Of a stretch of 22,955 bases of DNA, positions 360 to 22,955 are shown piece by piece. Every line of letters starts with the position of its first letter. Position 1 is the stretch's first letter. A model generated the notes under the pieces. That model did no database searches, was not told the origin of the DNA, and was given only the letters and a program-made list of their open reading frames with translations. The DNA comes from a virus: positions 1 to 22,955 of the IMG/VR virus record IMGVR_UViG_3300031368_000015; one strand, given 5' to 3'. Both the position numbers and the translations under genes were made by a program.

Positions 360-397
360 AAGCAAATGTACATATAGTTTTAATACTTACCAAAAAA

Positions 398-2605
398 TTA
401 TTTAGTGCCGGCTCCAGGTTTAATTGCAGAGGAAATAATTTTCGTAGCCCGATCCTTATCTTTCTGCGAATCTTCTCTAGCCTCATCTCGTAATTTCTCT
501 CCGTATAAAACTTGACCAGTTTCTTCCTGTGCCTGAGCCTGTGCCTGAGCCTGATCTTCTCCAACTTGTGACTGCTTACGTTTAAGTTCAGCAAGTCTGC
601 GGTGAAATGATCTGAGCACCGCTAAGGCTTCTTCATCAGTAGCCCTGCCTGTAAGAGTTGCAGCAGTCTCTCCATCAATCAAACCATATTGTAACCATGA
701 TATCGTTCTTTGATCTACATATACACGCTCACTATCTGGATCAATGGTACGAACAAGACTAGTTCGGAACTGCTCATGTCTCATATCTTTAGAAATTTTT
801 AAGACTTCTGCAGATTCTTCACCTACTGCATCAACAAGTTCAGTATCCATATCTATATAATATCTCTTTCCGGATGTAGCTATATTCTGATAGCATCCAT
901 TGAATACCGAATTAATGGCCGCGTAAAATGGTTCCTGCATAATAGACCCTCTCTGGATGGCCAATTGCATAACCCCGACCAATTGATCCGGATTCTGCTG
1001 CCCCTTCAATCCCTCATTCACCCCACTAATCTGTTCAATACCAAGACGGAAGTTTTCAATCAATTCTGAGAAAACCAGGGTAGTTTCTTTAACTCCGGCA
1101 TCATAACGCCCTACAGCATTATTAACACCGCGGGCTCTTCCACGAATACCTATTGGCTCAGATCTCTTCATTTTTCCAGCAACTTCGTCTTCAGTTCCTT
1201 CATCAAATAAATCCATATCAAACACAACTCCAGCTCCGCCAGCATTATTAATCTGATTCTCCATAACCGACATAAACCGGTTAATCATTCTTTGTGGATT
1301 GATAACCACATCAATTGGAGCCATGGTCTCCCCATCCATATACGCCCATGTACCACACTTGTACGGGGGTTTCATATTGGTTGGCATATAAAGATCAGGT
1401 TCTTGATAAGGGATAATACCGAAATCCAAAACAACACTCTCAACAGCCTTGGATGGATTATATTTTGAAGCGGAAAGAATCTCATATGGAATAAATCGAC
1501 AGAATCTCCACAAGTCAACCTGCAGATTCCTGGTAGATCTCCCGCGCAATACTTTCTTTTGGTATGATGTTAGATCCTGAAGAGGAATCACATCCATTCT
1601 CGTATACCTTATATCCTCTTCTCCCTCATATACATAATTAAGTCTTTCCAATATTCTTTGCCCAAATTGATCCGTAACATACCCAAATGTATCCACAACC
1701 GTATCTCTCCAAGTTGCATTATATGTTGGTACCCTGTGACGAATATCAAAAGATTGTCCATTTGCCTGTGTACCTATAGTCTGGGATACATAATCCTCAA
1801 TAGCCTTCTTCTGGGGTAAAGATAATGCTTGATGACGCTCATAAATATCGGTAGCCAGGGAATAATCAAACTCAAAAAAATATTCAGAATCGGAAAGATC
1901 TTCTTCTATTGCTCCTCTGTCCCAACCAAACCTATCTACCGGAATTCTTTTGAATTGCCATTCTCCATTAAGCGGGTATGGATGAACAATGCCTATACCA
2001 CCAGTAGCGATATCAACAGCAAGTTGTTTCTTAAACCGGTCTAATCTAGAAGTCTTGGCTACATATCTTAGTAACCTATTCATCGCAACCACAAAGCTAT
2101 CCACATAATTATTCTCGAATCGCATGGCAATATCATCCTCATCCTTACCAGTTAGATACCCCTTCTTCTCCATTTCCTTCCCGAATTCCGGGAATAATTC
2201 AGCCGCGTAACCATACGCTTGTAACCGGGCCAGAGACTTATCCCGACGACTTTTTGCCATGGGCGATATGGCTTGGACCTTTACATCAAATGTCATCCGT
2301 TCTGCGTTTCCACGATATTGTTCTATCATGGGCTGGATGAAATTACGGGTTACTTTAATACGATTGCGATCCTGTCCAGATTCGTCTTTAAAAAATGCCT
2401 CAGTATCCTCTTTCATGATCCACTGCTTATTCTTGTAGAAATTCATGTTAGTTTGATACTTAGCTATGTGTTCGATCTGCTTTTGACGCAACCCTTCACC
2501 GATTACCCAACGAGCATACTCAACATGGTATTTCTCATCTTTCAGATCTTCTCGGATTTCAATCCGGTTTGGCTTATTTTGTTTTGTTTGAATTAATTGA
2601 AGCAT
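398..2605 (-). CDS. Portal protein (P22/crAss-like, large)
   Basis: 735 aa, two genes downstream of terL. Has portal-like segments (FYKNKQW near the N-terminus, QRMINRFMSVMENQIN, IEQISGVNEGLKGQ) and a Gln/Ala-rich coiled-coil C-terminus. Confidence 0.8.
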   Translation of the reverse strand: MLQLIQTKQNKPNRIEIREDLKDEKYHVEYARWVIGEGLRQKQIEHIAKYQTNMNFYKNKQWIMKEDTEAFFKDESGQDRNRIKVTRNFIQPMIEQYRGNAERMTFDVKVQAISPMAKSRRDKSLARLQAYGYAAELFPEFGKEMEKKGYLTGKDEDDIAMRFENNYVDSFVVAMNRLLRYVAKTSRLDRFKKQLAVDIATGGIGIVHPYPLNGEWQFKRIPVDRFGWDRGAIEEDLSDSEYFFEFDYSLATDIYERHQALSLPQKKAIEDYVSQTIGTQANGQSFDIRHRVPTYNATWRDTVVDTFGYVTDQFGQRILERLNYVYEGEEDIRYTRMDVIPLQDLTSYQKKVLRGRSTRNLQVDLWRFCRFIPYEILSASKYNPSKAVESVVLDFGIIPYQEPDLYMPTNMKPPYKCGTWAYMDGETMAPIDVVINPQRMINRFMSVMENQINNAGGAGVVFDMDLFDEGTEDEVAGKMKRSEPIGIRGRARGVNNAVGRYDAGVKETTLVFSELIENFRLGIEQISGVNEGLKGQQNPDQLVGVMQLAIQRGSIMQEPFYAAINSVFNGCYQNIATSGKRYYIDMDTELVDAVGEESAEVLKISKDMRHEQFRTSLVRTIDPDSERVYVDQRTISWLQYGLIDGETAATLTGRATDEEALAVLRSFHRRLAELKRKQSQVGEDQAQAQAQAQEETGQVLYGEKLRDEAREDSQKDKDRATKIISSAIKPGAGTK

Positions 2606-5709: not shown

Positions 5710-6423
5710 TTATTTAATTTTTATTAAATGTAAATATGTTGCTTTTATATGTTTTAAGTATTTATCATATCCGAGTGTGCCTTTTGCCGCGTTACACACA
5801 AAACAGCACGATACCGAATTATTGATTGTATATCCTTCACTATTATCTTTACGATCAATTCCATTATAGATGTATGATCCATTAGCCCCTGACGGGTGAC
5901 ATATATTTGATGGCGGTGACCCACAATAATGACAATTTCCCTTATGTAATATTAGGATTTGCTCGTCGGTTAACGCCTGTTCTAAATTTCTCTTTTTTGC
6001 ACTGTTTTTGTGCCAAAGCATAACACGGTTACGAGCAGCTATTCCTTCAGGAAGCGATTGCTGGTCTTTTTGCAAACAGCCACAACTTGTAGTTAATTCA
6101 GCAACTAAAGCTGAACCATTTATAACTTTCTCATTACCACAATCACATAAACATTTCCAGAATGATTTATTTTTATGCATGTGAGAAAACTCTATCACTG
6201 TAAGCCTATTAAACTTTCGACCCTTTAATTCAAGCCTATTCTTACCTTTGAGGTGTCCGCAACTTTTAGTGTGCCCGTTTCTTAAATTATATCCGGGTAT
6301 AACTTTCTCATTACCACAATCACATAAACATTTCCAATATGCGTCCTTATGCATGTGAGAAAACTCTATCACTGTAAGCTCACCGAACCTTTTTCCTGTC
6401 ATATCAATCCGTGGTCTACCCAT
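5710..6423 (-). CDS. HNH-type endonuclease with two tandem N-terminal Cys-rich repeats
   Basis: Two copies of G(K/R)xFxxLTVIEFSHMHK...WKCLCDCGNEKVI...SCG. The C-terminal CHYCG...GIDRKDNSEGYTINNSVSCCFVCNAAKG is a beta-beta-alpha metal nuclease motif. Confidence 0.85.
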   Translation of the reverse strand: MGRPRIDMTGKRFGELTVIEFSHMHKDAYWKCLCDCGNEKVIPGYNLRNGHTKSCGHLKGKNRLELKGRKFNRLTVIEFSHMHKNKSFWKCLCDCGNEKVINGSALVAELTTSCGCLQKDQQSLPEGIAARNRVMLWHKNSAKKRNLEQALTDEQILILHKGNCHYCGSPPSNICHPSGANGSYIYNGIDRKDNSEGYTINNSVSCCFVCNAAKGTLGYDKYLKHIKATYLHLIKIK

Positions 6424-8599: not shown

Positions 8600-8699
8600 G
8601 TATTGCAATATCCAATATTTTATTGTAGCTTTACAGAAGTTCTTTGAGATCGATATTTCGAAACATGTTTGGACCGGGGTTCGTTGCCCCGCATCTCCA
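8600..8699 (+). ncRNA. ssrA: tmRNA acceptor piece (3' part of a permuted two-piece tmRNA); 5' end approximate
   Basis: CATGTTTG-GAC-CGGGG-TTCGTTG-CCCCG-CATCTCC-A gives the H2a 3' strand, the GAC linker, a 5-bp T-stem with 7-nt loop, the acceptor 3' strand and discriminator A. CCA is not fully encoded. Confidence 0.85.
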
Positions 8700-8724
8700 C
8701 AAAAAGTCCAACCGGTAGCCAAAA

Positions 8725-8855
8725 GGGGTGAGGATAAGATCACACACCCGGGCGTTTATTCGGCTCTGGCCTTGGGGGATAATACGACGCCGTGCAAAAA
8801 TGTCTATGCTGAGGAGCATGAAGATATACCGCCGGAAGATTCGTATTTTCCCCCC
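8725..8855 (+). ncRNA. Structured RNA domain inside the tmRNA intervening segment (function unknown)
   Basis: Closing stem GGGG-T-GAGGATA / TATTTTC-C-CCCC plus GATC/GATT. It encloses hairpins at 8751-8791 (GGCGT/ACGCC, TTATTC/GGATAA) and 8801-8826 (TGTCT/AGATA, ATGCT/AGCAT). Several G.U pairs. Confidence 0.5.
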
Positions 8856-8892
8856 CTGGTACAGGGGAGTAAGTTACAAGATTGTAAGATAT

Positions 8893-9039
8893 GGGGATGA
8901 ATGTTTTGACAGCATGAGAGTAGGGTATCAGGAGAGGACGAAGCTAATTAACCGGCACAAAGGTTATACAACTAATTCCTCAAGGCCGCTTCCAGGAAGC
9001 AGCTTAGCTAGGAGCCTGAGCCCCTTCGGGGGTTTCAGG
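8893..9039 (+). ncRNA. ssrA: tmRNA coding piece (5' tRNA-like strand plus tag reading frame)
   Basis: GGGGATG pairs with CATCTCC (8692-8698), including G3.U70 (Ala identity). A D-loop-like AATGTTTTGA follows, then CAGCATG, which pairs with CATGTTTG. The tag ORF follows, and the piece ends in a cUUCGg hairpin (9015-9039). Confidence 0.85.
8954..9007 (+). other. tmRNA proteolysis-tag reading frame (A)GTKVIQLIPQGRFQEAA*
   Basis: Resume context ATTAACC|GGC keeps U-5, A-4, R-3 and Y-1. There are 17 codons ending GCA GCT TAG. Confidence 0.8.
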
Positions 9040-12396: not shown

Positions 12397-13355
12397 TGAC
12401 TACATACTCAACATTTAACCCATCAGCCAAGGATACGTATGTTGTCTTTGATGCACATTATATGGCTGTAATTAATGGAGTTTCCGATTCCTGGAGAGAT
12501 GTAGGATTCCGGATGGCCAGGGCCTATAAATCCTGGGGGGATTATCATCTTTATGAATTACCCATGACGCAATTAATGCGTAAAGAATTCGAAAGTCCTA
12601 ATGATCATAGATATCATATGCAGTATCGCCGGCACCCGCACGTAGAATGGGGCACTGGTGATATGTCCAGGGATCATGTAACTGGTTTACTTTTATTAGC
12701 TTACTTCGGCGTCGAAGATTGCCGACATGAGGCTCTCCTCCGTCTTCAGGATATGATCAAATATTCAACCTGGCGGATCTCAGAGAGACATACATTTACT
12801 ATTGATATGTGGGCCTGGATGAAGGGTATCCTCAACAAACGATGGAGAACTATCTGGTATATCTTGGAAATTCCAATCATGGGCTTAGCCAAAGCATGGA
12901 ATGCCTGGTTACTGAAAAGAGGTAATTTCACTCTTCCGGAACTCAATCAAATAGACTTTGTAATGTCCAGAATCAATTATGATGTCACAGAGAAACAAGC
13001 CAAACTTCGGGAAAAAATGTACCCATATTATTCAGTTGAGACTGTAGCTTGGCAAAATTACATCAATCCGGATTCACCTGGTAAGCGTTGGTTGAGTAAG
13101 ATTATTTTGAAGATGGCTGGTGAGCATAATTATCTTGTACGTCTTCTGTGTGGTGATATGACGGTTACAAAAGACCAGGTCCTCATGTATCTTGAGACGA
13201 CCGGATCTCGTTGGGGTGTTCTTCTTAATGAAGCTTGTCGGAGAACCATAAGGTTCCTTACCAATAAAGAGGCTCAATACAATTGCCTTGAAGGAGATAT
13301 ATTAATAACCATCTGGAATGAGGTTCATCCAGAAGATCAAATCTTAACACGATGA
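12396..13355 (+). CDS. Hypothetical protein (aromatic-rich, mostly helical)
   Basis: 319-aa ORF, translationally coupled on both sides. No motif recognised. Confidence 0.8.
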   Translation: MTTYSTFNPSAKDTYVVFDAHYMAVINGVSDSWRDVGFRMARAYKSWGDYHLYELPMTQLMRKEFESPNDHRYHMQYRRHPHVEWGTGDMSRDHVTGLLLLAYFGVEDCRHEALLRLQDMIKYSTWRISERHTFTIDMWAWMKGILNKRWRTIWYILEIPIMGLAKAWNAWLLKRGNFTLPELNQIDFVMSRINYDVTEKQAKLREKMYPYYSVETVAWQNYINPDSPGKRWLSKIILKMAGEHNYLVRLLCGDMTVTKDQVLMYLETTGSRWGVLLNEACRRTIRFLTNKEAQYNCLEGDILITIWNEVHPEDQILTR

Positions 13356-13951
13356 AAAAACTATTATTTATTTTGATGGTTGCTACTTTAGTGAGCTGCA
13401 ATTGTCTTATGCCTCAGCGAGTTCCGCCACAAACGGTATATGCAACGGATAGCTGTGAAACTGCCCTTCCGAACTATCTTCCCTTCTTTCGTGTAAGAGA
13501 TAATTGTCCTGGACCAATAATTACTCAAACTCCAATTGCCGGTACTGTATTAGACACCGATAATCCTTATGTAGAGGTCCATATCATTGCAACGGATATA
13601 TCAGATAACCGGGATACTGTATCATTCGATGTATTCTTTCAAGATACTATTCCCCCAGTAATCACAGTTGATAGTACATTTCTATCTAACATAGATGCAT
13701 TTGAACTACTGGATCTGGCCCAGGCTTCATTCAGACCGTATATATCTGATTCAGTGTGGAATACACATAATCTTGTAATGATATCATCTCCTAATGGATC
13801 ACACATGGGAGGGTGGTATCATAATAAATATGATATAATTACAGTAACTGAGGAGGATCTTGAGAAACTTGGGTATACAACTTATAGACTTTACTTTACC
13901 GGCCCGGTACCGGCGTCAAAATTTCCGGAATTAGAGTATTCAGATCTTTAA
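13352..13951 (+). CDS. Lipoprotein with a HYR/Ig-like domain
   Basis: Signal peptide with lipobox (MKKLLFILMVATLVS-C). The CxxxxPxY...DNCP...T...G and DTIPPVIT segments are typical of HYR/Ig-like repeats. Confidence 0.75.
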   Translation: MKKLLFILMVATLVSCNCLMPQRVPPQTVYATDSCETALPNYLPFFRVRDNCPGPIITQTPIAGTVLDTDNPYVEVHIIATDISDNRDTVSFDVFFQDTIPPVITVDSTFLSNIDAFELLDLAQASFRPYISDSVWNTHNLVMISSPNGSHMGGWYHNKYDIITVTEEDLEKLGYTTYRLYFTGPVPASKFPELEYSDL

Positions 13952-13961
13952 AACAACAAAT

Positions 13962-14423
13962 ATGAAATATGTAATAGTAGATATCGATGGTACTGTAGCT
14001 CACAGCGCTACTCGCCAAGCTAAGATTCTCCAGCTTCTGGAGGTTACTCCTATTAAGGAGATGCCATGGTCAGAATTATTCAAAGACTGTCAATTGGATA
14101 AACCACTTTGGGTGGTCATTGATTTAATACTCGCAATAGCTAATAAGTACCATATTGTATTTTGCACCAGCCGAAATGAGACATTTAGAGAAAAAACCCG
14201 GGCTTGGATTGATGAATATATTGGTTTATGGAAGGCTCCGCTGCTTATGAGAAAGTCTATAAAGGACCATCGATCAGATAGTATCGTGAAGCCGGAACTC
14301 CTTAAGGAAGCTGGTATTACGACGAAGAATACAGCTTTTATCATTGAAGATAAAAATTCAATAGTTCAAACCTGGCGAGATCTTGGTTTCACAGTTTTAC
14401 AACCAATTAATAACGAATATTAA
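13962..14423 (+). CDS. HAD-superfamily phosphatase resembling the 3'-phosphatase domain of phage polynucleotide kinase
   Basis: IVDIDGTVA (DxDxT), CTSR, LLMR...D, KPEL and IEDK...WRDLG. Confidence 0.88.
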   Translation: MKYVIVDIDGTVAHSATRQAKILQLLEVTPIKEMPWSELFKDCQLDKPLWVVIDLILAIANKYHIVFCTSRNETFREKTRAWIDEYIGLWKAPLLMRKSIKDHRSDSIVKPELLKEAGITTKNTAFIIEDKNSIVQTWRDLGFTVLQPINNEY

Positions 14424-14436
14424 TAAATACAACAAT

Positions 14437-14868
14437 ATGGATTGGTACGAACTTGCTAAATTACTTATGTGGACGCTATTTGCGACCACTTTCACAGCTG
14501 CCGTAGGAGTAGCCTTGGATCTTAAACTTATTAAATCCGGTAAAAAAGCCTGGCTTCGACCCAAGTGGTTATGGAACCTGGTTGAATTTGCAGTCATATT
14601 TGGTTTGATTACCTGGAAATATTCATTCCCATTGCCTTGGTGGCATATGGGCGTATTATATACCATTGCAGCATTTTTCTGGTGGATCTTGCATGACTAT
14701 TGGATCAGTTTGGGACTTACAGGAGATCCTTTCTATCTAGGCCAGGGTAAATTTGACCGGATATTTTTTAAGGTGTTTAATCAATTCGGCCTTCCTGCAG
14801 GATTGAACTTCATGATCGCCAAACTGGTCTGGATGTTTTTAGCGGGTACCGCATTCTTTAGCTTATAA
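14437..14868 (+). CDS. Multi-pass membrane protein
   Basis: About four hydrophobic, Trp-rich segments. Start at MDWYELAK. Confidence 0.75.
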   Translation: MDWYELAKLLMWTLFATTFTAAVGVALDLKLIKSGKKAWLRPKWLWNLVEFAVIFGLITWKYSFPLPWWHMGVLYTIAAFFWWILHDYWISLGLTGDPFYLGQGKFDRIFFKVFNQFGLPAGLNFMIAKLVWMFLAGTAFFSL

Positions 14869-17817: not shown

Positions 17818-17847
17818 TTTAAATATTATTATAGAAAAGTTAAATTG

Positions 17848-17921
17848 TACTGATGGGCGGATTTGAACCACCGACCTCCTACTTATCAGGCAGATGCTCT
17901 AATCAACTGAGCTACACCAGT
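17848..17921 (-). tRNA. tRNA-Ile(GAT)
   Basis: Full cloverleaf: acceptor ACTGGTG/CATCAGT, anticodon loop CT-GAT-AA, T-loop TTCAAAT, A73. Confidence 0.95.
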
Positions 17922-17924
17922 ATG

Positions 17925-18000
17925 CTGACCCCCCAGGGTTCGAACCTGGATTCTTTGGATTCAAAATCCAACGTGTTACCAAATGTTACACCAGAGGTCA
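17925..18000 (-). tRNA. tRNA-Gln(TTG)
   Basis: Acceptor TGACCTC/GGGGTCA, anticodon arm TTGGA-TT-TTG-AA-TCCAA, T-arm CCAGG-TTCGAAC-CCTGG, G73. Confidence 0.93.
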
Positions 18001-18003
18001 ATG

Positions 18004-18077
18004 TGGGCCTGAAGGGACTTGAACCCCTGACCGTCTGATTATGAGTCAGATGCTCTAACCAACTGAGCTACAGGCCC
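18004..18077 (-). tRNA. tRNA(CAT), probably Ile2 (lysidine type) or elongator Met
   Basis: Acceptor GGGCCTG/CAGGCCC, anticodon arm TCTGA-CT-CAT-AA-TCAGA. No initiator GGG/CCC. The Ile2 versus Met identity is inferred. Confidence 0.9.
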
Positions 18078-18745
18078 CGGTTGCAAACGTTTTCCTGGTC
18101 AACTGTTAAAGGAAGAAATCGTTTATAAGCCTCTATCGCATCCGGATTCTCTCGGAGGCCCCTAATGTACTCACCACGAAGATCAGACTCCATTATCTGT
18201 TTATATCGGAAATCCGTAGCCATTTCAAATCCTTTCTTGATTAGGCCATCAAATGAAGATCCTTTTCCTTGTGGGGTTACTATATCTAACATATCTTCAT
18301 TATATTCTCCTTTCAGGGTATCGCATACCATTAATCGAAATGACCGGGAACTATGAAAAATTTCGTATCCCACTAATAGGCTGTAATTAAGATATTTACC
18401 TGTATATGCTTCTTCTAATTGAGAAGTCCAGATTTTAAAGGCTAGGTCCCGCTTATAGTCCGATAGAGGTTTAGGTATCCATTTTAAATAAGAAGCCCAC
18501 CAGTTCAGTAAGTCCCTGAAAACGATTATATTAAATGTTTTATTCGCCCAGTTTATTTTGTGACTACTGAAATCACTGTCAATTTGGCAGGTTCCCATAA
18601 TGATGCTTTTTTGAGCTTGTGCGTAGTCCTGGGGCTGTACGTCCTCAAAATTGATTATGAGTAACTCCGGTGACCAGGATTGGATCATTTGTCGGACAAA
18701 GTTGTGCCCTGACCGGCAACAGGCAATAATTACAATGTTTTTCAT
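18068..18745 (-). CDS. Sulfotransferase-like (P-loop) protein
   Basis: N-terminal IIACCRSGHNFVRQMI (5'-PAPS-binding-like) and IVFRDLLNWWASY (3'-phosphate-binding R...S motif). Confidence 0.7.
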   Translation of the reverse strand: MKNIVIIACCRSGHNFVRQMIQSWSPELLIINFEDVQPQDYAQAQKSIIMGTCQIDSDFSSHKINWANKTFNIIVFRDLLNWWASYLKWIPKPLSDYKRDLAFKIWTSQLEEAYTGKYLNYSLLVGYEIFHSSRSFRLMVCDTLKGEYNEDMLDIVTPQGKGSSFDGLIKKGFEMATDFRYKQIMESDLRGEYIRGLRENPDAIEAYKRFLPLTVDQENVCNRGL

Positions 18746-18888
18746 TTGGGTTTATTATTTTCTATAGCACATTCAAATATTGAATTACAATAAGGACACT
18801 GTAAATAATCAATAGTATGTGGTTTTTTACCTTTAATCTTTTTTAATAAAAGTATTCCGCAGTGAGGGCAAATATCTCCTGTTTTCAT
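18742..18888 (-). CDS. 48-aa zinc-ribbon protein not in the ORF track
   Basis: MKTGDICPHCG...YLQCPYCNS... has two CxxC motifs and an ATGA overlap with the sulfotransferase start. Confidence 0.75.
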   Translation of the reverse strand: MKTGDICPHCGILLLKKIKGKKPHTIDYLQCPYCNSIFECAIENNKPK

Positions 18889-18890
18889 TG

Positions 18891-19052
18891 CTATTCCTGT
18901 TTAGATTTCCATTCATCAAAAACCTTACTCCAAAATTTATATGGATATTTTGTATAATCTTCTTCATGCCAATCAATAATAAACTTTATTGCCACTTCTC
19001 GGCTTACTTCATTAAAAGCCTGAAGGATAATTTCTATTATTTGATTTATCAT
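18891..19052 (-). CDS. Hypothetical protein (53 aa)
   Basis: Start moved to MINQIIE at 19052, because the longer ORF overlaps a tRNA-like element. Confidence 0.65.
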   Translation of the reverse strand: MINQIIEIILQAFNEVSREVAIKFIIDWHEEDYTKYPYKFWSKVFDEWKSKQE

Positions 19053-19054
19053 AG

Positions 19055-19130
19055 TACGGGAGAGAGGATTTGAACCTCCCCCTCCGGCTCTTCCGCCGAC
19101 GCTCTGGCCCATGGTTTAAGCTACTCCCGT
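19055..19130 (-). tRNA. Atypical tRNA-like gene with an all-purine 6-nt anticodon loop (no assignable anticodon)
   Basis: Perfect acceptor ACGGGAG/CTCCCGT plus A73, D-stem GCTT/GAGC, T-arm GGAGG-TTCAAAT-CCTCT. The anticodon stem TCGGC/GCCGG closes GGAAGA. Confidence 0.75.
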
Positions 19131-19154
19131 TACACTTCTCCAAGGATTGTGTTG

Positions 19155-19227
19155 CGCTGAAGGAAGGATTTGAACCTACACTTTCCAGGATGAAAACCTG
19201 ACGTCCTACGCGATAGACGATAAGGCC
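19155..19227 (-). pseudogene. Chimeric tRNA: Glu(TTC) 5' half and anticodon arm fused to a non-matching 3' end
   Basis: The D-arm and TCAGG-TT-TTC-AT-CCTGG are Glu-like, but acceptor strands GGCCTTA and CTTCAGC form only 1 of 7 pairs. Confidence 0.75.
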
Positions 19228-19233
19228 ACATAG

Positions 19234-19274
19234 TGCCGGAGTGAGGAATCGAACCCCCATGCCCAGTCTCCGGC
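19234..19274 (-). ncRNA. Mini-tRNA (acceptor stem plus T-arm only), copy in the tRNA operon
   Basis: GCCGGAG-ACTGGGCA-TGGGGG-TTCGATT-CCTCA-CTCCGGC-A-C: perfect 7-bp acceptor stem, 41 nt. Confidence 0.7.
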
Positions 19275-19383
19275 AAAGATCCCCCGTCAATAGGCTGTGG
19301 TTGTCTTAACGGTTGTCCTCTGGTGCATGCAGATCCCCGGGAGAAAGACGGGTCACGTAGCTTACAATGCCTATCATATGTTG

Positions 19384-19462
19384 TAGCGGGGGTAGGATTC
19401 GAACCGTTTATGACGACCTTTGGGATATGAGCCCAACGAGCTACCAACTGCTCTACCCCGCT
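19384..19462 (-). tRNA. Initiator-type tRNA-fMet(CAT) with a 6-nt insertion in the T-stem
   Basis: AGCGGGG/CCCCGCT acceptor, D-stem GAGC/GCTC, and three G-C pairs in the anticodon stem (TTGGG/CCCAA). The T-stem 5' strand reads GTCATAAACGG instead of the GTAGG implied by CCTAC. Confidence 0.85.
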
Positions 19463-19553
19463 ATATTATTAACAGGATAATCCTGGATTGGTATGTCCAA
19501 CCAGTCTTGATTAAAAATTACATATTCCATTTCATTATTTCTATTGTTTTAAG

Positions 19554-19626
19554 GGTGCCTGGAGAATTTCGAAATCTCGACCTTCGGAATCACAACCCGA
19601 CGCTCTGCCTCTGAGCTACAGACAAC
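19554..19626 (-). tRNA. tRNA-His(GTG)
   Basis: Encoded G-1 and C73; anticodon arm TCGGG-TT-GTG-AT-TCCGA. U1.C72 and one T-stem pair are mismatched. Confidence 0.88.
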
Positions 19627-19630
19627 GGTA

Positions 19631-19638
19631 CAAAGATA
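19631..19638 (-). promoter_or_regulatory. -7 box (TATCTTTG) of the tRNA-operon promoter
   Basis: TAnnTTTG 4 nt upstream of G-1 of tRNA-His. The -33 box is weak. Confidence 0.6.
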
Positions 19639-19663
19639 AACATAATATTTGAAAGTACCGCAT

Positions 19664-19680
19664 AGAATGATTATAAATAA
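19664..19680 (+). promoter_or_regulatory. Phage-specific motif copy 3 (AGAATGATTATAAATAA)
   Basis: One mismatch to the consensus. Confidence 0.55.
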
Positions 19681-19683
19681 CTA

Positions 19684-19729
19684 CTGCCATTTTGTCAGGC
19701 TTTTTGGAATTAACACTGCCATTTTGTCA
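19684..19729. repeat. CTGCCATTTTGTCA x2 with 32-bp period
   Basis: Copies start at 19684 and 19716. Confidence 0.85.
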
Positions 19730-20431
19730 TGTTTGTCGCGAATATATACTATACTTGCGACATTCTGCACGTTTTTGCAAACTTTTCGTCGTTAGAGGAT
19801 TAGATACTTGGACCAGTTAACAGACGCGAACCCCCGGTTGGTATTTTATATATTATACTTTATGTTTCTGTTTTGCATCATTTATGTATACAAATAGAAA
19901 TAGGATTCCTATTGTGTTCAATAATAAACTTTGTTCATGGGCCGTGAACATGTATGGAGATGGGACCCAACGTTTGCCAGTAAAGCTGATTTAGTGGTAA
20001 ACGTTGAGTATGGGACCCAATAATATATAAAAGCATGCTTAGTGGACTGTTTGGGGTGTATAGGGGGGGCCTCTTTGTGAAGGAAACTCGGTTGAATTCT
20101 TGGCTATATAGGGTAGGGTCCCCTATTACGTTCTTAACTGACTCACAGCCTGTTAGGTCAATTAGTCCTATAACTATTATTATGTTAAGTAGACGCGTAG
20201 TGGCCTGGGCCTGAGGAGGATAGGTATAATACAGCCTGCCTGTGCGGGGAGAAATACCAATATCTAAATTAAATAAAATTAATTAAATAAACCTGCGCGG
20301 CGGATAGTTCACATGCTCTACAGGCCCCTGTTCATAGGGTACACAGAGCTACGCTCACAAGCCCCTATCCATGGGCAGTACAGCAGTACGCATTCATAGC
20401 ATTAATGACACGTACTACGAAGGTCTTCGTA

Positions 20432-20551
20432 CATGACAATATGTCATGATGTCACAAAATAGGGGCAAATACACTGCCATTATGTCATAGAATAAGGGTA
20501 AACTACTGCCATTATGTCATGCTGCCCATACCCAGACCTGCCATTATGTCA
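20432..20551. repeat. CTGCCATTATGTCA x3 with exact 32-bp period, plus a palindromic variant
   Basis: Copies start at 20474, 20506 and 20538. CATGACA-ATA-TGTCATG lies at 20432-20448. Confidence 0.9.
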
Positions 20552-20558
20552 TACTACA

Positions 20559-20612
20559 AGTAATATTAGGCTGTAACCTAATACACCAGTAATATTAGAC
20601 TGTAACCTAATA
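20559..20612. repeat. 25-bp direct repeat x2 containing the palindrome TATTAGG-N6-CCTAATA
   Basis: AGTAATATTAG(G/A)CTGTAACCTAATA at 20559 and 20588 (29-bp period). Confidence 0.9.
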
Positions 20613-20680
20613 TTAATAACTATTTAATCAGAATTATATGTTACCTGGTACACAATATCACAATTATACTACGATTAGAT

Positions 20681-20697
20681 AGAATTATTCTAAATAG
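20681..20697 (+). promoter_or_regulatory. Phage-specific motif copy 4 (AGAATTATTCTAAATAG)
   Basis: Matches the consensus GAATNATT(C/A)TAAATA. Confidence 0.55.
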
Positions 20698-20857
20698 GCC
20701 CGGATAACCTATTCACTGGGCTGTAGAGCGTAAGTGTATCATTATGCTACACTCACCTAAACATTTAGTTTGTTTTTTAACATATGCTCTGCAGCCCACT
20801 GGGCATGGGCAATACAGGCCGTTACATCAACTAATTTTAAATTATTTTATAACCTTT

Positions 20858-20874
20858 GAATGATTCTAAATAAG
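20858..20874 (+). promoter_or_regulatory. Phage-specific motif copy 5 (GAATGATTCTAAATAAG)
   Basis: 17/17 identical to the reverse complement of 342-358. Confidence 0.6.
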
Positions 20875-21243
20875 GTCAACAACACGCTCAGTATCAATAA
20901 CATATGATATCAGCTATTTGTTAACGCCTTGACACATAGCATTTTAACCTTTCACTATTAATTACGTAATTGCAATCAGTTCGTTGACATGCTGAGATGT
21001 GAAAGCCCACCGGGGACCTGTAGACAAATTTGGTACGCGTACCATAGGGATGTAGGTTAGTAAGTGGTAATCATATCAACAGGACACATGAGAGCGCAGC
21101 CCGGGTCGCCGGGATGTGAGCAGGGCAGGCAGCCGCAATTGAAAAGATACACTACAGACCAGCACAAGCAGCTGGTGGTGTTAACTACGAGTTAGCTACG
21201 AGATCCCCGGAACACAGAGCGACCGGGAACAATAAGAGAAACG

Positions 21244-21315
21244 GCATAAGGCCTGTAAACAGTTAAATCGGATCTTATCAGGTAGTAGAGTGTAATTACT
21301 TTACAGGCCTTATGC
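21244..21315. repeat. Long hairpin with a perfect 16-bp stem
   Basis: GCATAAGGCCTGTAAA / TTTACAGGCCTTATGC, extended inward by AGTTA/TAATT. Confidence 0.85.
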
Positions 21316-21374
21316 ATCGAGAGCAATAAGATTCACAATTATTACATATTATAAACCTCTAATATCTTAGTAAC

Positions 21375-21566
21375 ATGGAACAACAAACACGGTTTACAAA
21401 TCAGGAAGTACAAGATCTGTTTGAAATTACCCGTTTCTTTCATAATGGATCACAGTTCAAATTTAAGGGTGTGGTTTACACCTTGACTTACGGCGGTGCT
21501 ACAGTCCGCGTATTAAAACAAAGCGGTGCTGGTAACTATAAAGAAATAACTTTAAAACGTAAATAA
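21375..21566 (+). CDS. Hypothetical protein
   Basis: First ORF after the long non-coding region; TAATG coupling to the next gene. Confidence 0.7.
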   Translation: MEQQTRFTNQEVQDLFEITRFFHNGSQFKFKGVVYTLTYGGATVRVLKQSGAGNYKEITLKRK

Positions 21567-22237
21567 TGGAACAACAATTTTATAATAAACAGTACACCCG
21601 TACCCAGGTAAAGAACAATATCCTGAAAGTATGGGACGCAACCAATGAGACGGACCGTTTTGACTGGTATAAGGCTGCAAATGATTTTGCACACGGGTTG
21701 GCTAATATAGCACCTAGCAATGATGGATATCATTTAGACGTTGCCAGGGCGTGCGGTGTAATTGCAGCCCTGAGTCCGATGGTACATTGGAATCGGAATA
21801 AGAAATTGGCACGTGAATTGATTGAAGACTCTAAGTTATTGAACGTGTGGATAATAGTTGATCATATGGCATGCTTAAAAGCCAATGCTCGCAAAGCAGC
21901 GGCTATCTTATTAAGCGATGGCAGCGATGATGCAATTTTAGATATCCTGAAAGGCAAAAAGACAAGTGCATTCTTTCTAAATATCTTATATCCTAACAAA
22001 GCAATATCTTTGACAATGGATAGACACGCAATATCTATTGCCCTGGGCAGGAAAATCACAAAGGGTGAAGAGAAGTATTTACAGCTAACTGCCGGACAGT
22101 ACAAGTTCTTAGTTGAATGCTATAGATGGACAGCTGCAAAGCTTAAAGTCAATCCACTGATTTTACAATCAGCTACCTGGGTATTGTGGAGAAAAGAAGG
22201 CAGAAACACTGAATTACCTTATTATCTTGATTTTTAG
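21566..22237 (+). CDS. Phage protein with a helix-hairpin-helix DNA-glycosylase-like signature
   Basis: WY...IAALSP...W..N, LKGKKTSAFFLNI, TMDRHA and LQSATW form an HhH-like GxKT followed by a D-x-H motif. The activity is uncertain. Confidence 0.6.
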   Translation: MEQQFYNKQYTRTQVKNNILKVWDATNETDRFDWYKAANDFAHGLANIAPSNDGYHLDVARACGVIAALSPMVHWNRNKKLARELIEDSKLLNVWIIVDHMACLKANARKAAAILLSDGSDDAILDILKGKKTSAFFLNILYPNKAISLTMDRHAISIALGRKITKGEEKYLQLTAGQYKFLVECYRWTAAKLKVNPLILQSATWVLWRKEGRNTELPYYLDF

Positions 22238-22329
22238 TCAACAGCCGCCGGGACGTCGGTATATAAAAGCAAAAGTGTATAAGCTATGCATGAGTAGTAC
22301 GTCCTAATATGCATTTACACAATAATAAT

Positions 22330-22388
22330 GCCAGTTAACGGGCAGCCTGAAATAATAAGGGCGAAGGGTTCGAATCCCTTTACTGGCA
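22330..22388 (+). ncRNA. D-armless mini-tRNA (59 nt)
   Basis: GCCAGTT...AAGGG-TTCGAAT-CCCTT-TACTGGC-A-CGA: 6-bp acceptor plus mismatch, canonical T-arm, and a short 4-bp arm with a 10-nt loop in place of the D and anticodon arms. Confidence 0.7.
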
Positions 22389-22413
22389 CGACTTTTAATT
22401 AAATACAATTATA

Positions 22414-22620
22414 ATGAAAGACAAATTTAACTTAAATGGCATTGATTACAAGGTAGTTAATGGTTTAGTTTACAAGCAATCACAGGGTATATTAGACCCA
22501 TGTTACAAAGGTGACAGTAGTGTATTGGATGAGTTTTGCAGAATACATAGCTTAACACTATATCAGAGGCCTAAAGGTGTTCATGCATACGGTAACCAGC
22601 ACGGATTACGTACGCAATAG
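22414..22620 (+). CDS. Hypothetical protein
   Basis: 68 aa between two mini-tRNAs; AT-rich start. Confidence 0.7.
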   Translation: MKDKFNLNGIDYKVVNGLVYKQSQGILDPCYKGDSSVLDEFCRIHSLTLYQRPKGVHAYGNQHGLRTQ

Positions 22621-22660
22621 CCAGTATGGTATCTGCCTGGGTCCGACTCCCGGGCTGGCA
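22620..22660 (+). ncRNA. Mini-tRNA (41 nt)
   Basis: GCCAGT-ATGGTATCTGC-CTGGG-TCCGACT-CCCGG-GCTGGC-A-CGA. Confidence 0.7.
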
Positions 22661-22682
22661 CGACGTTTAACTAATATTTAAT

Positions 22683-22892
22683 ATGATGAAAGTAAGAAAT
22701 GTAATTAGTGTCATTTTGATTATTTTAGGATGGTTAGCTTTAATTTTATGGATAGCCTGGTCAGACTGGAAAGATTTTAGCGCAGCTATAGAGAAGTTCA
22801 AAGATGTGTTTTTCAATGTACTAACCGGATTCACAGGCGTGATTGTAATAATAGGATTTATTATGGGCGGCGTGTTAATTTGGAAAGATTAG
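22683..22892 (+). CDS. Two-TM membrane protein
   Basis: Two hydrophobic stretches flank a charged loop. Confidence 0.75.
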   Translation: MMKVRNVISVILIILGWLALILWIAWSDWKDFSAAIEKFKDVFFNVLTGFTGVIVIIGFIMGGVLIWKD

Positions 22893-22934
22893 CTATTATG
22901 GTACTGGGCCTGGGTTCGACTCCCAGGCATAGCA
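22892..22934 (+). ncRNA. Mini-tRNA (43 nt)
   Basis: GCTAT-TATGGTACTGG-GCCTGGG-TTCGACT-CCCAGGC-ATAGC-A-CAA: a 12-bp coaxial helix (5+7). Confidence 0.7.
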
Positions 22935-22955
22935 CAAATATGTTTAATTAATATT

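Follow-up and report, generated by a model that had tools for sequence, protein, structure and literature searches.

Mini-tRNAs between small phage genes often share position 1 with the last base of the upstream stop codon and most likely act as processing punctuation signals

Short tRNA-like elements, called here mini-tRNAs, stand between small phage genes, and position 1 of such an element is frequently also the last base of the stop codon of the preceding open reading frame (ORF). The mini-tRNAs are genuine structured elements, top-half tRNA mimics, and their one-base overlap with stop codons far exceeds chance. It is most likely that they act as processing punctuation signals. Since the last base of the stop is position 1 of the element, an RNase P cut at this place would leave the upstream mRNA stop-less, and punctuation in which the cut strips the stop and switches off the cistron is the reading put forward here tentatively, as one that falls a little short of an even chance.

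The window, that is the whole stretch of DNA that was analysed (22,955 nucleotides), belongs to a phage whose source was a salt marsh. A 68-aa ORF (22414-22620, plus strand) ends there with TAG at 22618-22620, and its final G, paired with C22659, is position 1 of a 41-nt acceptor/T-arm minihelix. This element, mini-tRNA C (22620-22660, plus strand; 53.6 bits with model R1), comprises an acceptor stem, the ATGGT connector, a T arm with the loop TCCGACT and discriminator A, and its pairs are backed by covariation. Between mini-tRNA C and the next start codon lies a conserved, AU-rich 22-nt leader (CGACGTTTAACTAA...; 22661-22682, plus strand). A hydrophobic 69-aa ORF follows (22683-22892, plus strand), and G22892, the last base of its TAG (22890-22892), is position 1 of mini-tRNA D (22892-22934, plus strand; 55.8 bits with model R1), an element that recurs in L226 and L275, strain variants whose array continues beyond it. 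Both G1 positions had been placed on the last G of a TAG in the original prediction, and the coordinates proved to be exact. The leader is not long enough for a promoter, and no terminator-like site was found on the plus strand at the leader or in the array; its motif is present also 3' of mini-tRNAs in L005, L007, L226, L237, L275 and L278. The ortholog of mini-tRNA C in L007 (9553-9593) is preceded by an unrelated ORF, yet TAG falls again on G1. Over its residues 1-64 the 68-aa ORF shares 43% identity with the N-terminal end of an ORF of 154 aa in the relative L005 that also closes with TAG on position 1 of a mini-tRNA; homologous ORFs (68 and 154 aa) and unrelated ones alike end on the same type of junction. 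Upstream of these genes a D-armless tRNA-like element (22330-22388, plus strand; 22.5 bits in the model search) was detected, with an acceptor stem, a 4-bp hairpin carrying an oversized loop, and a T arm. No stop codon adjoins it; its ortholog is situated at 9283-9341 of L007, and its place in strain L226/L275 is taken by a canonical mini-tRNA with TAG overlap. Mini-tRNA A (19234-19274, minus strand; 38.9 bits with model R1), recognized by its fold, lies within a minus-strand tRNA array and has no upstream ORF.

The mini-tRNAs share one build of about 41 nt, in which the acceptor stem has 5 bp, the T arm has 7 bp and the two are joined by the “elbow” connector ATGGT. Among 38 distinct sequences 98.2% of base-pair cells are paired, and double compensatory changes occupy 154 cells, a value to be compared with 23-35 in slid controls and reached by none of 500 shuffles; compensatory changes occur at 11 of the 12 pairs (5 + 7). 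The GTTCRANYC-type T loop and the 12-bp coaxial stack of acceptor and T arm are features of canonical tRNAs. G53, T54, C56, G57 and A58 of the T loop never vary, the connector is near-invariant, and T loop and connector are both conserved far above the stems. The discriminator-plus-C context matches that of the phage's own tRNAs. Identity with canonical tRNAs was rejected, as a D arm and an anticodon arm are absent and only about 11 nt separate the acceptor and T stems; ARAGORN called no mini-tRNAs in the window. The tRNA-like domain of tmRNA was rejected as well, as its alanine identity pair G3:U70 is absent: pair 3-70 is CG in 25 cases, UA in 6, AU in 3 and GC in 2, and never GU. Gene callers and tRNA finders overlook mini-tRNAs, and the ends of neighbouring ORFs are easily misread.

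Mini-tRNAs occur as arrays between small ORFs, on the coding strand, in several phage lineages (five in L005, seven within 5 kb in G001, nine in strain L226/L275). Here offset 0 denotes the last stop base on position 1 of the mini-tRNA and offset -1 a full stop abutting position 1. ORF stops in the arrays are mostly located at offsets -13 to 0, the next start codon follows 20-30 nt downstream, and neither a promoter-sized gap nor a terminator was present when these were sought in the arrays. The array members are thus tRNA-like folds on the mRNA strand at cistron boundaries, a feature of t-elements and punctuation signals. Near-identical mini-tRNAs stand behind unrelated ORFs and the modules are mosaic.

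The survey covered 65 distinct mini-tRNA junctions (54 with an upstream ORF) from loci retrieved by connector and T-loop sequence patterns, which biases the sample towards one subfamily. Offset 0 was found in 24 of the 54 ORF-to-mini-tRNA junctions and offset -1 in 6, counts that are inflated by shared ancestry, as many offset-0 cases come from one clade whose repeat consensus includes the TA before G1. At the 24 junctions only TA or TG of the last codon stands before position 1, as with incomplete stops of the mitochondrial type, and position 1 completes the stop in the DNA; the stop covaries with position 1: 19 TAG/G1, 4 TAA/A1 and 1 TGA/A1. The overlap is frequent and not obligatory, about half of the junctions being at other offsets (-1 to -13, +4, +6). 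The original prediction had proposed to look for the overlap in relatives and at further mini-tRNAs past the window; it is kept in the former, and in the strain variant L275, which extends 2 kb past the window end, it is repeated in the continuing array. In the same loci there are 39 junctions where an ORF meets a true tRNA, and offset 0 occurs at none of them (Fisher p = 1.4e-7). Elements with G1 are divided 19 to 1 between offsets 0 and -1, those with A1 5 to 4. At two junctions TA|G is retained though it is out of frame and the ORF stops a few bases earlier. Stop usage in the window (14 TAA, 3 TAG, 1 TGA) makes TAA the default, so that the 19:1 bias at G1 elements points to more than tight packing.

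Compact gene packing had been named from the beginning as the simpler alternative. According to this explanation the mini-tRNAs may well be signals for processing, but the overlap would be the limit of harmless compaction, since the last base of a stop and position 1 are both G or A, and it would be frozen by duplication of the repeat unit and by recombination inside it; the proteins would be made co-transcriptionally before cleavage, and the loss of the stop would have no consequence. The heap of offsets between -13 and 0 is what compact phage genomes predict, and the nearly equal share of A1 elements at offsets 0 and -1, the TA persisting before G1 in the two cases with an earlier out-of-frame stop, and the role of mini-tRNAs as marks of module boundaries agree with it too. 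It is countered by true tRNAs, which have no offset-0 heap in the same loci, and by the preference of G1 elements for offset 0 though offset -1 permits the favoured TAA and the saving is one base; moreover, operons that spend 41 nt on each mini-tRNA and 20-30 nt on a leader are implausibly under pressure for the last base. Conservation, stop/position-1 covariation, the contrast to tRNAs and the 19:1 bias together argue against plain compact packing, which is possible but doubtful, and fit a design where a 5' cut at position 1 strips the stop.

The third overlap of the original prediction is of another kind. A tRNA-Met(CAT) with cloverleaf features (18003-18077, minus strand; ARAGORN; Rfam tRNA 76.6 bits) is entered over 10 nt by a 225-aa ORF of no known family (18068-18745, minus strand), whose TAG (18070-18068) is U8-A9-G10 of the tRNA, at tRNA positions 8-10 exactly as predicted; G1 of the tRNA (18077) occupies the third position in a codon that stands three codons ahead of the ORF end. 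The name “sulfotransferase-like” applied earlier to this ORF is not supported by Pfam or PHROG, in which no family was found for it. Such a coding sequence with its stop inside a valid downstream tRNA of the same orientation is the feature described by Hudson, Lau & Williams in 2014 (PMC4131195), and a stop at U8A9G10 (+9) is seen at 5 of the 39 ORF-to-tRNA junctions. The overlap at tRNA-Met stands apart as a generic by-product of an ORF that reads into the universal U8A9G10. Of the three stops once joined in a single pattern, the two at mini-tRNAs remain together and this one lies outside.

Acceptor/T-arm minihelices can serve as substrates for RNase P, RNase Z and the CCA-adding enzyme. What we infer for the mini-tRNAs, from the two cleavages to the non-stop fate and a possible regulatory purpose, can be described as follows. 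The elements would be transcribed within a polycistronic message between small phage genes. By minimal-substrate rules the cut by host RNase P should fall on the 5' side of position 1, and an enzyme of tRNA 3' processing, similar to RNase Z, would cleave behind the discriminator, releasing the mini-RNA and a downstream mRNA bearing the AU-rich leader of about 22 nt. The upstream mRNA would be left ending ...UA or ...UG. Normal termination would be possible on uncut RNA only, the cut RNA would become a non-stop message whose ribosomes have to be rescued, for which host tmRNA or, in phages that have one, a phage tmRNA would serve, and processing may double as a switch-off of the upstream cistron. 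Programmed stop removal looks costly, which speaks against this reading. Among the listed sequencing runs that contain this DNA, none is recorded as RNA.

The phage's own tmRNA, assumed in the original prediction, is a candidate. A putative two-piece (permuted) tmRNA at 8639-9007 (plus strand), in an ORF-poor gap, scores 48.6 bits with Rfam RF04321, which is marginal at a threshold of 47. It has a T arm (8675-8691), a 3' acceptor strand (8692-8698) and a 5' acceptor strand (8893-8899); by eye, GGGGATG with CATCTCC gives G3:U70, and the tag frame runs ...QEAA-TAG with the stop at 9005-9007. These tmRNA features speak for the claim; against it, ARAGORN did not call the candidate, and a search for its relatives found none, so it is without comparative support. 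The coupling of mini-tRNAs to a phage tmRNA is not required: the relative G001, which is 94% complete, has seven mini-tRNAs and three of these at offset 0, yet no tmRNA was detectable in it, and G002, a third lineage bearing mini-tRNAs, has one. The link is therefore weak. The more ambitious version, where the mini-tRNAs are programmed stop-codon removers, RNase P makes early cistrons non-stop, and trans-translation, by host tmRNA or by a phage tmRNA that has a tag of its own, then removes the message and tags or frees its last products, so that the whole acts as an expression timer, is regarded as rather unlikely.

Alternatively, the mini-tRNA could remain uncut at its 5' side and be kept on the upstream mRNA, trimmed after the discriminator and perhaps CCA-tailed, as a tRNA-like cap at the 3' end that shields the mRNA against 3' exonucleases; the stop would abut the fold so that no unprotected linker remains, and the mini-tRNAs would serve also as cassette recombination joints. 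The tRNA-like discriminator-plus-C context, the mosaic modules around conserved mini-tRNAs and the array without terminators, where 3' protection would be useful, are consistent with such a cap, but an exposed 12-bp acceptor/T-arm stack with a free 5' leader is a minimal RNase P substrate whose escape needs a special reason, and a cap accounts for proximity and not for the exact offset 0; it is considered clearly unlikely. It is highly improbable that the excised mini-RNA is itself the product that counts, an anticodon-less decoy or sponge for proteins binding to the top half of tRNAs, such as SmpB, tRNA-modifying or -cleaving enzymes or defence nucleases, with the stop position secondary. The conservation of connector and T loop far above the stems would suit a decoy, and a molecule of the kind to which the tmRNA of mycobacteriophage DS6A is reduced inhibits tmRNA, perhaps by titrating SmpB (PMC4131195). 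However, G3:U70 is absent (3-70 is mostly C-G), the elements are strictly intercistronic, on the coding strand and with a conserved leader, and the stop overlap is left unexplained.

Equally improbable is a mitochondria-like completion, in which non-templated A added by poly(A) polymerase or PNPase would rebuild UAA or UGA and the mRNA would stay translatable. A addition is the established way of stop completion at animal mitochondrial tRNA punctuation sites, and TA|G, TA|A and TG|A would all yield a stop by it. Non-templated C and A additions are reported at the ends of plant t-elements (PMC1920247). Nothing would be gained, though, over a complete stop at offset -1, the 19:1 bias is unexplained, and no ORF at the surveyed junctions was found to break off at T or TA in front of a C1 element. 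A Shine-Dalgarno-like motif precedes only 1 of 30 ORFs, from which the host is probably Bacteroidota-like, and we know of no dedicated poly(A) polymerase in Bacteroidota, which also speaks against completion.

Punctuation by tRNAs with shared or incomplete stops is a textbook oddity of mitochondria, and the same geometry is modal here in several phage lineages. If cleavage at the mini-tRNAs occurs as proposed, bacterial viruses would cut their multi-gene messages by means of host tRNA-trimming enzymes and would tolerate or exploit stop-less mRNAs, which would connect three subjects that are mostly studied separately: the action of RNase P on mRNAs, trans-translation in infected cells and the unexplained tmRNA genes of some phages. 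Should the timer version be true, mitochondria-style punctuation would have been turned into a timer of gene expression in a bacterial virus.

In animal mitochondria incomplete stops (T or TA) at tRNA punctuation are completed by polyadenylation. As there, the phage cistron runs up to the 5' end of an element shaped like a tRNA, its coding sequence closes with TA just before position 1, and the stop is whole only in uncut RNA or after A addition. The mitochondrial elements, however, are full functional tRNAs served by a dedicated poly(A) polymerase, whereas those of the phage are anticodon-less minihelices in a probably Bacteroidota host, where stop-less mRNA is a tmRNA substrate. Forner et al. 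(2007, PMC1920247) regard the t-elements of plant mitochondria as signals for cleavage, by RNase P at mRNA 3' ends and by RNase Z at mRNA 5' ends, and the element can be detected after its excision; in Arabidopsis they direct an RNase P-type cut, and the 3' ends of nad6 and ccmC mRNAs lie upstream of the stop, so that these mRNAs are stop-less (PMC1920247). A non-canonical tRNA-like fold, a conserved T arm and an adjoining mRNA on the same strand are common to both. Plant t-elements occur sporadically, mostly resemble a cloverleaf and have an organellar origin; by comparison the mini-tRNAs form a compact 41-nt family with neither D stem nor anticodon arm, repeated behind as many as nine phage genes in a row, with a conserved leader on the 3' side, a regular one-base stop overlap and a predicted cleavage.

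The tRNA-like domain of tmRNA, to little beyond which the tmRNA of mycobacteriophage DS6A is reduced (PMC4131195), likewise joins an acceptor stem to a T arm and an analogue of the D loop and has no anticodon arm, but mini-tRNAs lack G3:U70 and lie between cistrons instead of being separate genes. An mRNA designed to lose its stop by endonucleolytic processing is known from E. coli arfA, where, as cited in PMC4131195, RNase III removes the stop and the product depends on trans-translation activity; nuclease and fold are different and a single gene is concerned, whereas the phage ORFs are diverse and have no evident similarity to ArfA. The general idea that tRNA maturation yields stop-less mRNA is not new: overlaps of coding sequences with tRNA or tmRNA genes leading to non-stop mRNA were described in 2014 by Hudson, Lau & Williams, who found them uncommon and scattered, with about 1 mRNA in 15,000 affected, and saw no element family organized around them (PMC4131195). 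The logic is the same, maturation of tRNA or tmRNA clipping the upstream stop, and the tRNA-Met case of the window is an ordinary example of it, while the mini-tRNAs are a repeated element with the overlap as its modal state.

Two of the small plus-strand ORFs near the end of the window terminate within the mini-tRNA (minihelix, an acceptor/T-arm element of about 41 nt) that follows them. A 68-aa ORF is closed by TAG 22618-22620, whose last base, G22620, opens the pairing of one minihelix, and a 69-aa ORF is closed by TAG 22890-22892, whose G22892 serves as position 1 in the minihelix after it. All overlap coordinates of the original prediction were found exact when the sequence was read against the ORF list, and the sharing of the stop with G1 is kept in relatives. 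Junctions were defined by the longest upstream ORF of at least 35 aa with a stop ending between -40 and +20 of position 1; after near-identical junctions had been collapsed 65 were left, 54 of them with a qualifying ORF. The last base of the stop is position 1 itself (offset 0) at 24 of these 54, while 6 junctions lie at offset -1, where stop and element abut, 21 at -4 to -35 and 3 at +4 or +6; the loci were retrieved by sequence pattern, so the sample behind these counts is biased. At offset 0 the stop codon tracks the base at position 1 (TAG with G1 in 19 cases, TAA with A1 in four, TGA with A1 in one), and elements beginning with C never show such abutment. As a control ARAGORN was run over the same loci of about 2 Mb, which gave 277 distinct tRNAs, 39 of them with an upstream ORF. 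None of these 39 junctions stands at offset 0, two stand at -1 and five at +9 (the U8A9G10 triplet), and at offset 0 mini-tRNAs differ from true tRNAs with a Fisher p of 1.4e-7, the ORF minimum in the control being 50 aa and not 35. The similarity of the window's 68-aa ORF to a 154-aa ORF in a relative's locus (L005) is confined to residues 1-64 of the latter, and both end in TAG/G1; in front of the orthologous mini-tRNA of another relative (L007) stands an unrelated ORF, which likewise ends in TAG/G1. Two of the three mini-tRNAs of G002, a phage genome of a separate lineage, share the A of a TAA stop.

A third example had been proposed at tRNA-Met, where a 225-aa minus-strand ORF ends with TAG 18070-18068, that is at positions 8-10 of the tRNA (5' end 18077), and G1 (18077) is the third letter of the codon that stands three codons ahead of the ORF end. 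These coordinates are likewise exact, but the overlap is of a different, known class, as U8A9G10 halts any ORF that enters a tRNA in the appropriate frame, and this triplet is the stop at 5 of the 39 control junctions. Same-strand CDS/tRNA overlaps of this class were counted, and proposed as sources of non-stop mRNA, by Hudson, Lau and Williams (2014; PMC4131195).

Close relatives were not found by a single-protein back-translation search of viral contigs, a first, over-specific DNA pattern for mini-tRNAs gave zero matches, and blastn against GenBank phages produced matches at the tRNA level only. ARAGORN with lowered thresholds and introns was dropped, its false tmRNA and tRNA calls coming in floods. 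Relatives were fetched via the neighbouring DUF7178 protein, and mini-tRNAs are present also in their loci L005 (five copies), L007 and L009; a covariance model built from an alignment of ten copies detects the element again in numerous contigs of viral and metagenome origin. The proposed fold, from 38 distinct sequences, comprises a 5-bp acceptor stem, a connector of about 11 nt, a 7-bp T stem and a 7-nt T loop. Across these sequences 98.2% of pair cells are paired, and double compensatory changes number 154 versus 23-35 with slid partners, with 0 of 500 shuffles as high. Sequence hardly varies in the T loop or in the ATGGT motif of the connector, part of this conservation being due to the way in which the loci were fetched. 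The connector resembles a stemless D loop (U8, A14, G18-G19), so that the tRNA elbow is retained in the fold, and the acceptor/T-arm stack is 12 bp, the stack length measured by RNase P, RNase Z and the CCA-adding enzyme. A G3:U70 pair is absent from every mini-tRNA copy examined, and no flanking terminal target-site duplications, a sign of transposition, were seen by eye.

Mini-tRNAs are arrayed on the coding strand, seven within 5 kb in the relative's genome G001 (78 kb, 94%-complete), three within 1.5 kb in G002 (complete, 127 kb) and nine in the strain variants of the window, L226/L275. Recurrence beyond the window, which the original prediction had raised, is found in L275: it has 99.3% identity to window 22385-22955 and runs 2 kb beyond the window end, where the array continues with five further copies. 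Downstream of each mini-tRNA there is an AU-rich leader, conserved per clade, and the next start codon is 20-30 nt away, a spacing too short for a promoter; no terminator-like site was found on the plus strand. For these reasons the mini-tRNAs must be transcribed within a polycistronic RNA. Array ORFs without a preceding mini-tRNA have ahead of them a conserved motif, ATTATTACA.ATTAT ... TAGTAACATG (window 21335-21377, L005 9010-9050 and 10640-10680), perhaps a phage promoter with its leader. In the mini-tRNA that closes each array the discriminator context is unusual, reading …GGTG or …GGTA followed by CAAT or CGAT (L005 10942-10990, L007 11242-11290, L275 about 370-416, minus strand), and a conserved GATACCTAGCATCC motif comes after this mini-tRNA in all three loci, possibly an operon end signal.

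The 22,955 bp of the window form a complete IMG/VR record and are estimated at about 28% of a phage genome, and the sequencing runs listed as containing its DNA are eight, all of salt-marsh DNA, with no RNA run among them. A minus-strand tRNA array (17847-19625) holds Ile, Gln, Met, Met and His tRNAs called by ARAGORN, together with two aberrant tRNA-like genes and one minihelix (Rfam and our own scan). Within this array a tRNA-like gene at 19055-19130(-) scores 41 bits in Rfam and has good acceptor, D and T arms, with an anticodon stem closing a 6-nt loop, GGAAGA; it is recognised by ARAGORN solely as a tRNA-Phe(GAA) that contains an 11-nt 'intron'. An ORF start, ATG 19052-19050(-), lies two bases past its discriminator, and 3' tRNA processing would yield an almost leaderless mRNA for this ORF. 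Another element, 19150-19232(-), directly 3' of the minihelix at 19234-19274(-), is a degenerate tRNA-Glu(UUC)-like sequence (partial Rfam tRNA match, 32.5 bits) whose ends cannot pair as an acceptor stem. The ORF-free 1.7 kb at 19640-21374, with five ACTGCCATT(T/A)TGTCA motifs (near 19683, 19715, 20473, 20504 and 20538) and a direct repeat of about 25 nt near 20555-20615, is probably an origin or regulatory region, and a comparable gap precedes the DUF7178 gene in L005 and L007. It precedes a plus-strand run of small ORFs from 21375 on, among which three tRNA-like elements are interspersed (22330-22388, 22620-22660 and 22892-22934). A conserved non-coding stretch of about 90 nt, with the 3' end GGTAGTACGTCC, extends from the DUF7178 stop to the first of these elements (window 22238-22329, L005 8628-8699), and the GGTAGTAC motif is met again ahead of some mini-tRNAs, at a distance of 7 nt (L007 11200, L237 3127). 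Of 30 ORFs just 1 has a Shine-Dalgarno-like motif in front of it, an indication of a Bacteroidota-type host. Reassignment of TAG was ruled out: the standard code leaves the long structural ORFs open, TAG closes 3 of the 18 long ORFs, and no tRNA with a CUA anticodon was found by ARAGORN, Rfam or eye.

It had been proposed that RNase P, cutting 5' of G1, would clip the stop from the upstream mRNA, with compact gene packing as the simpler alternative. Neutral packing accounts for stops within a dozen bases of a mini-tRNA, but true tRNAs show no pile-up at offset 0, and G1 elements stand 19 times at offset 0 versus once at -1, although -1 permits TAA, with which 14 of the window's 18 long ORFs end, and although just a single base is gained, in operons that spend 41 nt on every element and more on a leader. 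Packing alone is considered rather unlikely, second to the reading given below. A cut 5' of position 1 would leave a stop-less upstream mRNA at offset 0, and the sole functional difference from offset -1 is whether the stop codon is lost or left after such a cut, which favours the core of the proposal. Punctuation together with stop removal is tentatively taken as the best reading of the mini-tRNAs, at somewhat below an even chance; caution is advised by the A1 elements (5 at offset 0 versus 4 at -1), by the origin of most offset-0 cases in one clade, whose repeat consensus has TA before G1, and by two copies in which this TA/G is out of frame.

The further step, coupling of stop removal to the phage's own tmRNA, is speculative. 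A candidate two-piece (permuted) tmRNA at 8639-9007(+) scores 48.6 bits in Rfam against a threshold of 47 and is not called by ARAGORN; in our reading its T arm is 8675-8691, the 3' acceptor strand 8692-8698 pairs with GGGGATG 8893-8899 to give G3:U70, the frame ends ...QEAA-TAG at 9007, and the closing UUCG hairpin is present. The segment separating the two pieces is unusually long (about 190 nt), and the predicted tag is (A)GTKVIQLIPQGRFQEAA. Relatives of the candidate were found neither in GenBank phages nor in viral contigs. A strong one-piece tmRNA (5805-6162, minus strand, 87.5 bits) is carried by G002, the record of locus L147 and a complete phage with terminal repeats, about 7 kb from its three mini-tRNAs on the same strand (13204-14682), and none was detected by either Rfam model in the 94%-complete G001. 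Two of three mini-array lineages thus have a tmRNA, the base rate being 1 in 50 DUF7178-bearing phage records. Among pattern-matched contigs, however, tmRNA carriage is 3/22 without a confirmed mini-tRNA versus 2/23 with one, and the mini-like matches that other phages with a tmRNA contain are either halves of tRNAs or lone elements away from ORFs, so an association is not established. Given these failed tests and the lack of a tmRNA in G001, a phage tmRNA is needless for the arrangement; to our knowledge every bacterial host possesses its own.

The overlap of the stop with position 1 is confirmed, and is stronger than was known when it was first noticed; the interpretation given to it is partly supported. 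No description of phage minihelix punctuation was found in the literature searched, subscription journals being outside its scope. Animal mitochondria use tRNA punctuation with incomplete stops, and this is one of the nearest analogues of the phage mini-tRNAs. The other is the t-elements of plant mitochondria, beside which the nad6 and ccmC mRNAs have their 3' ends upstream of the stop (PMC1920247), the phage cleavage being a predicted one.
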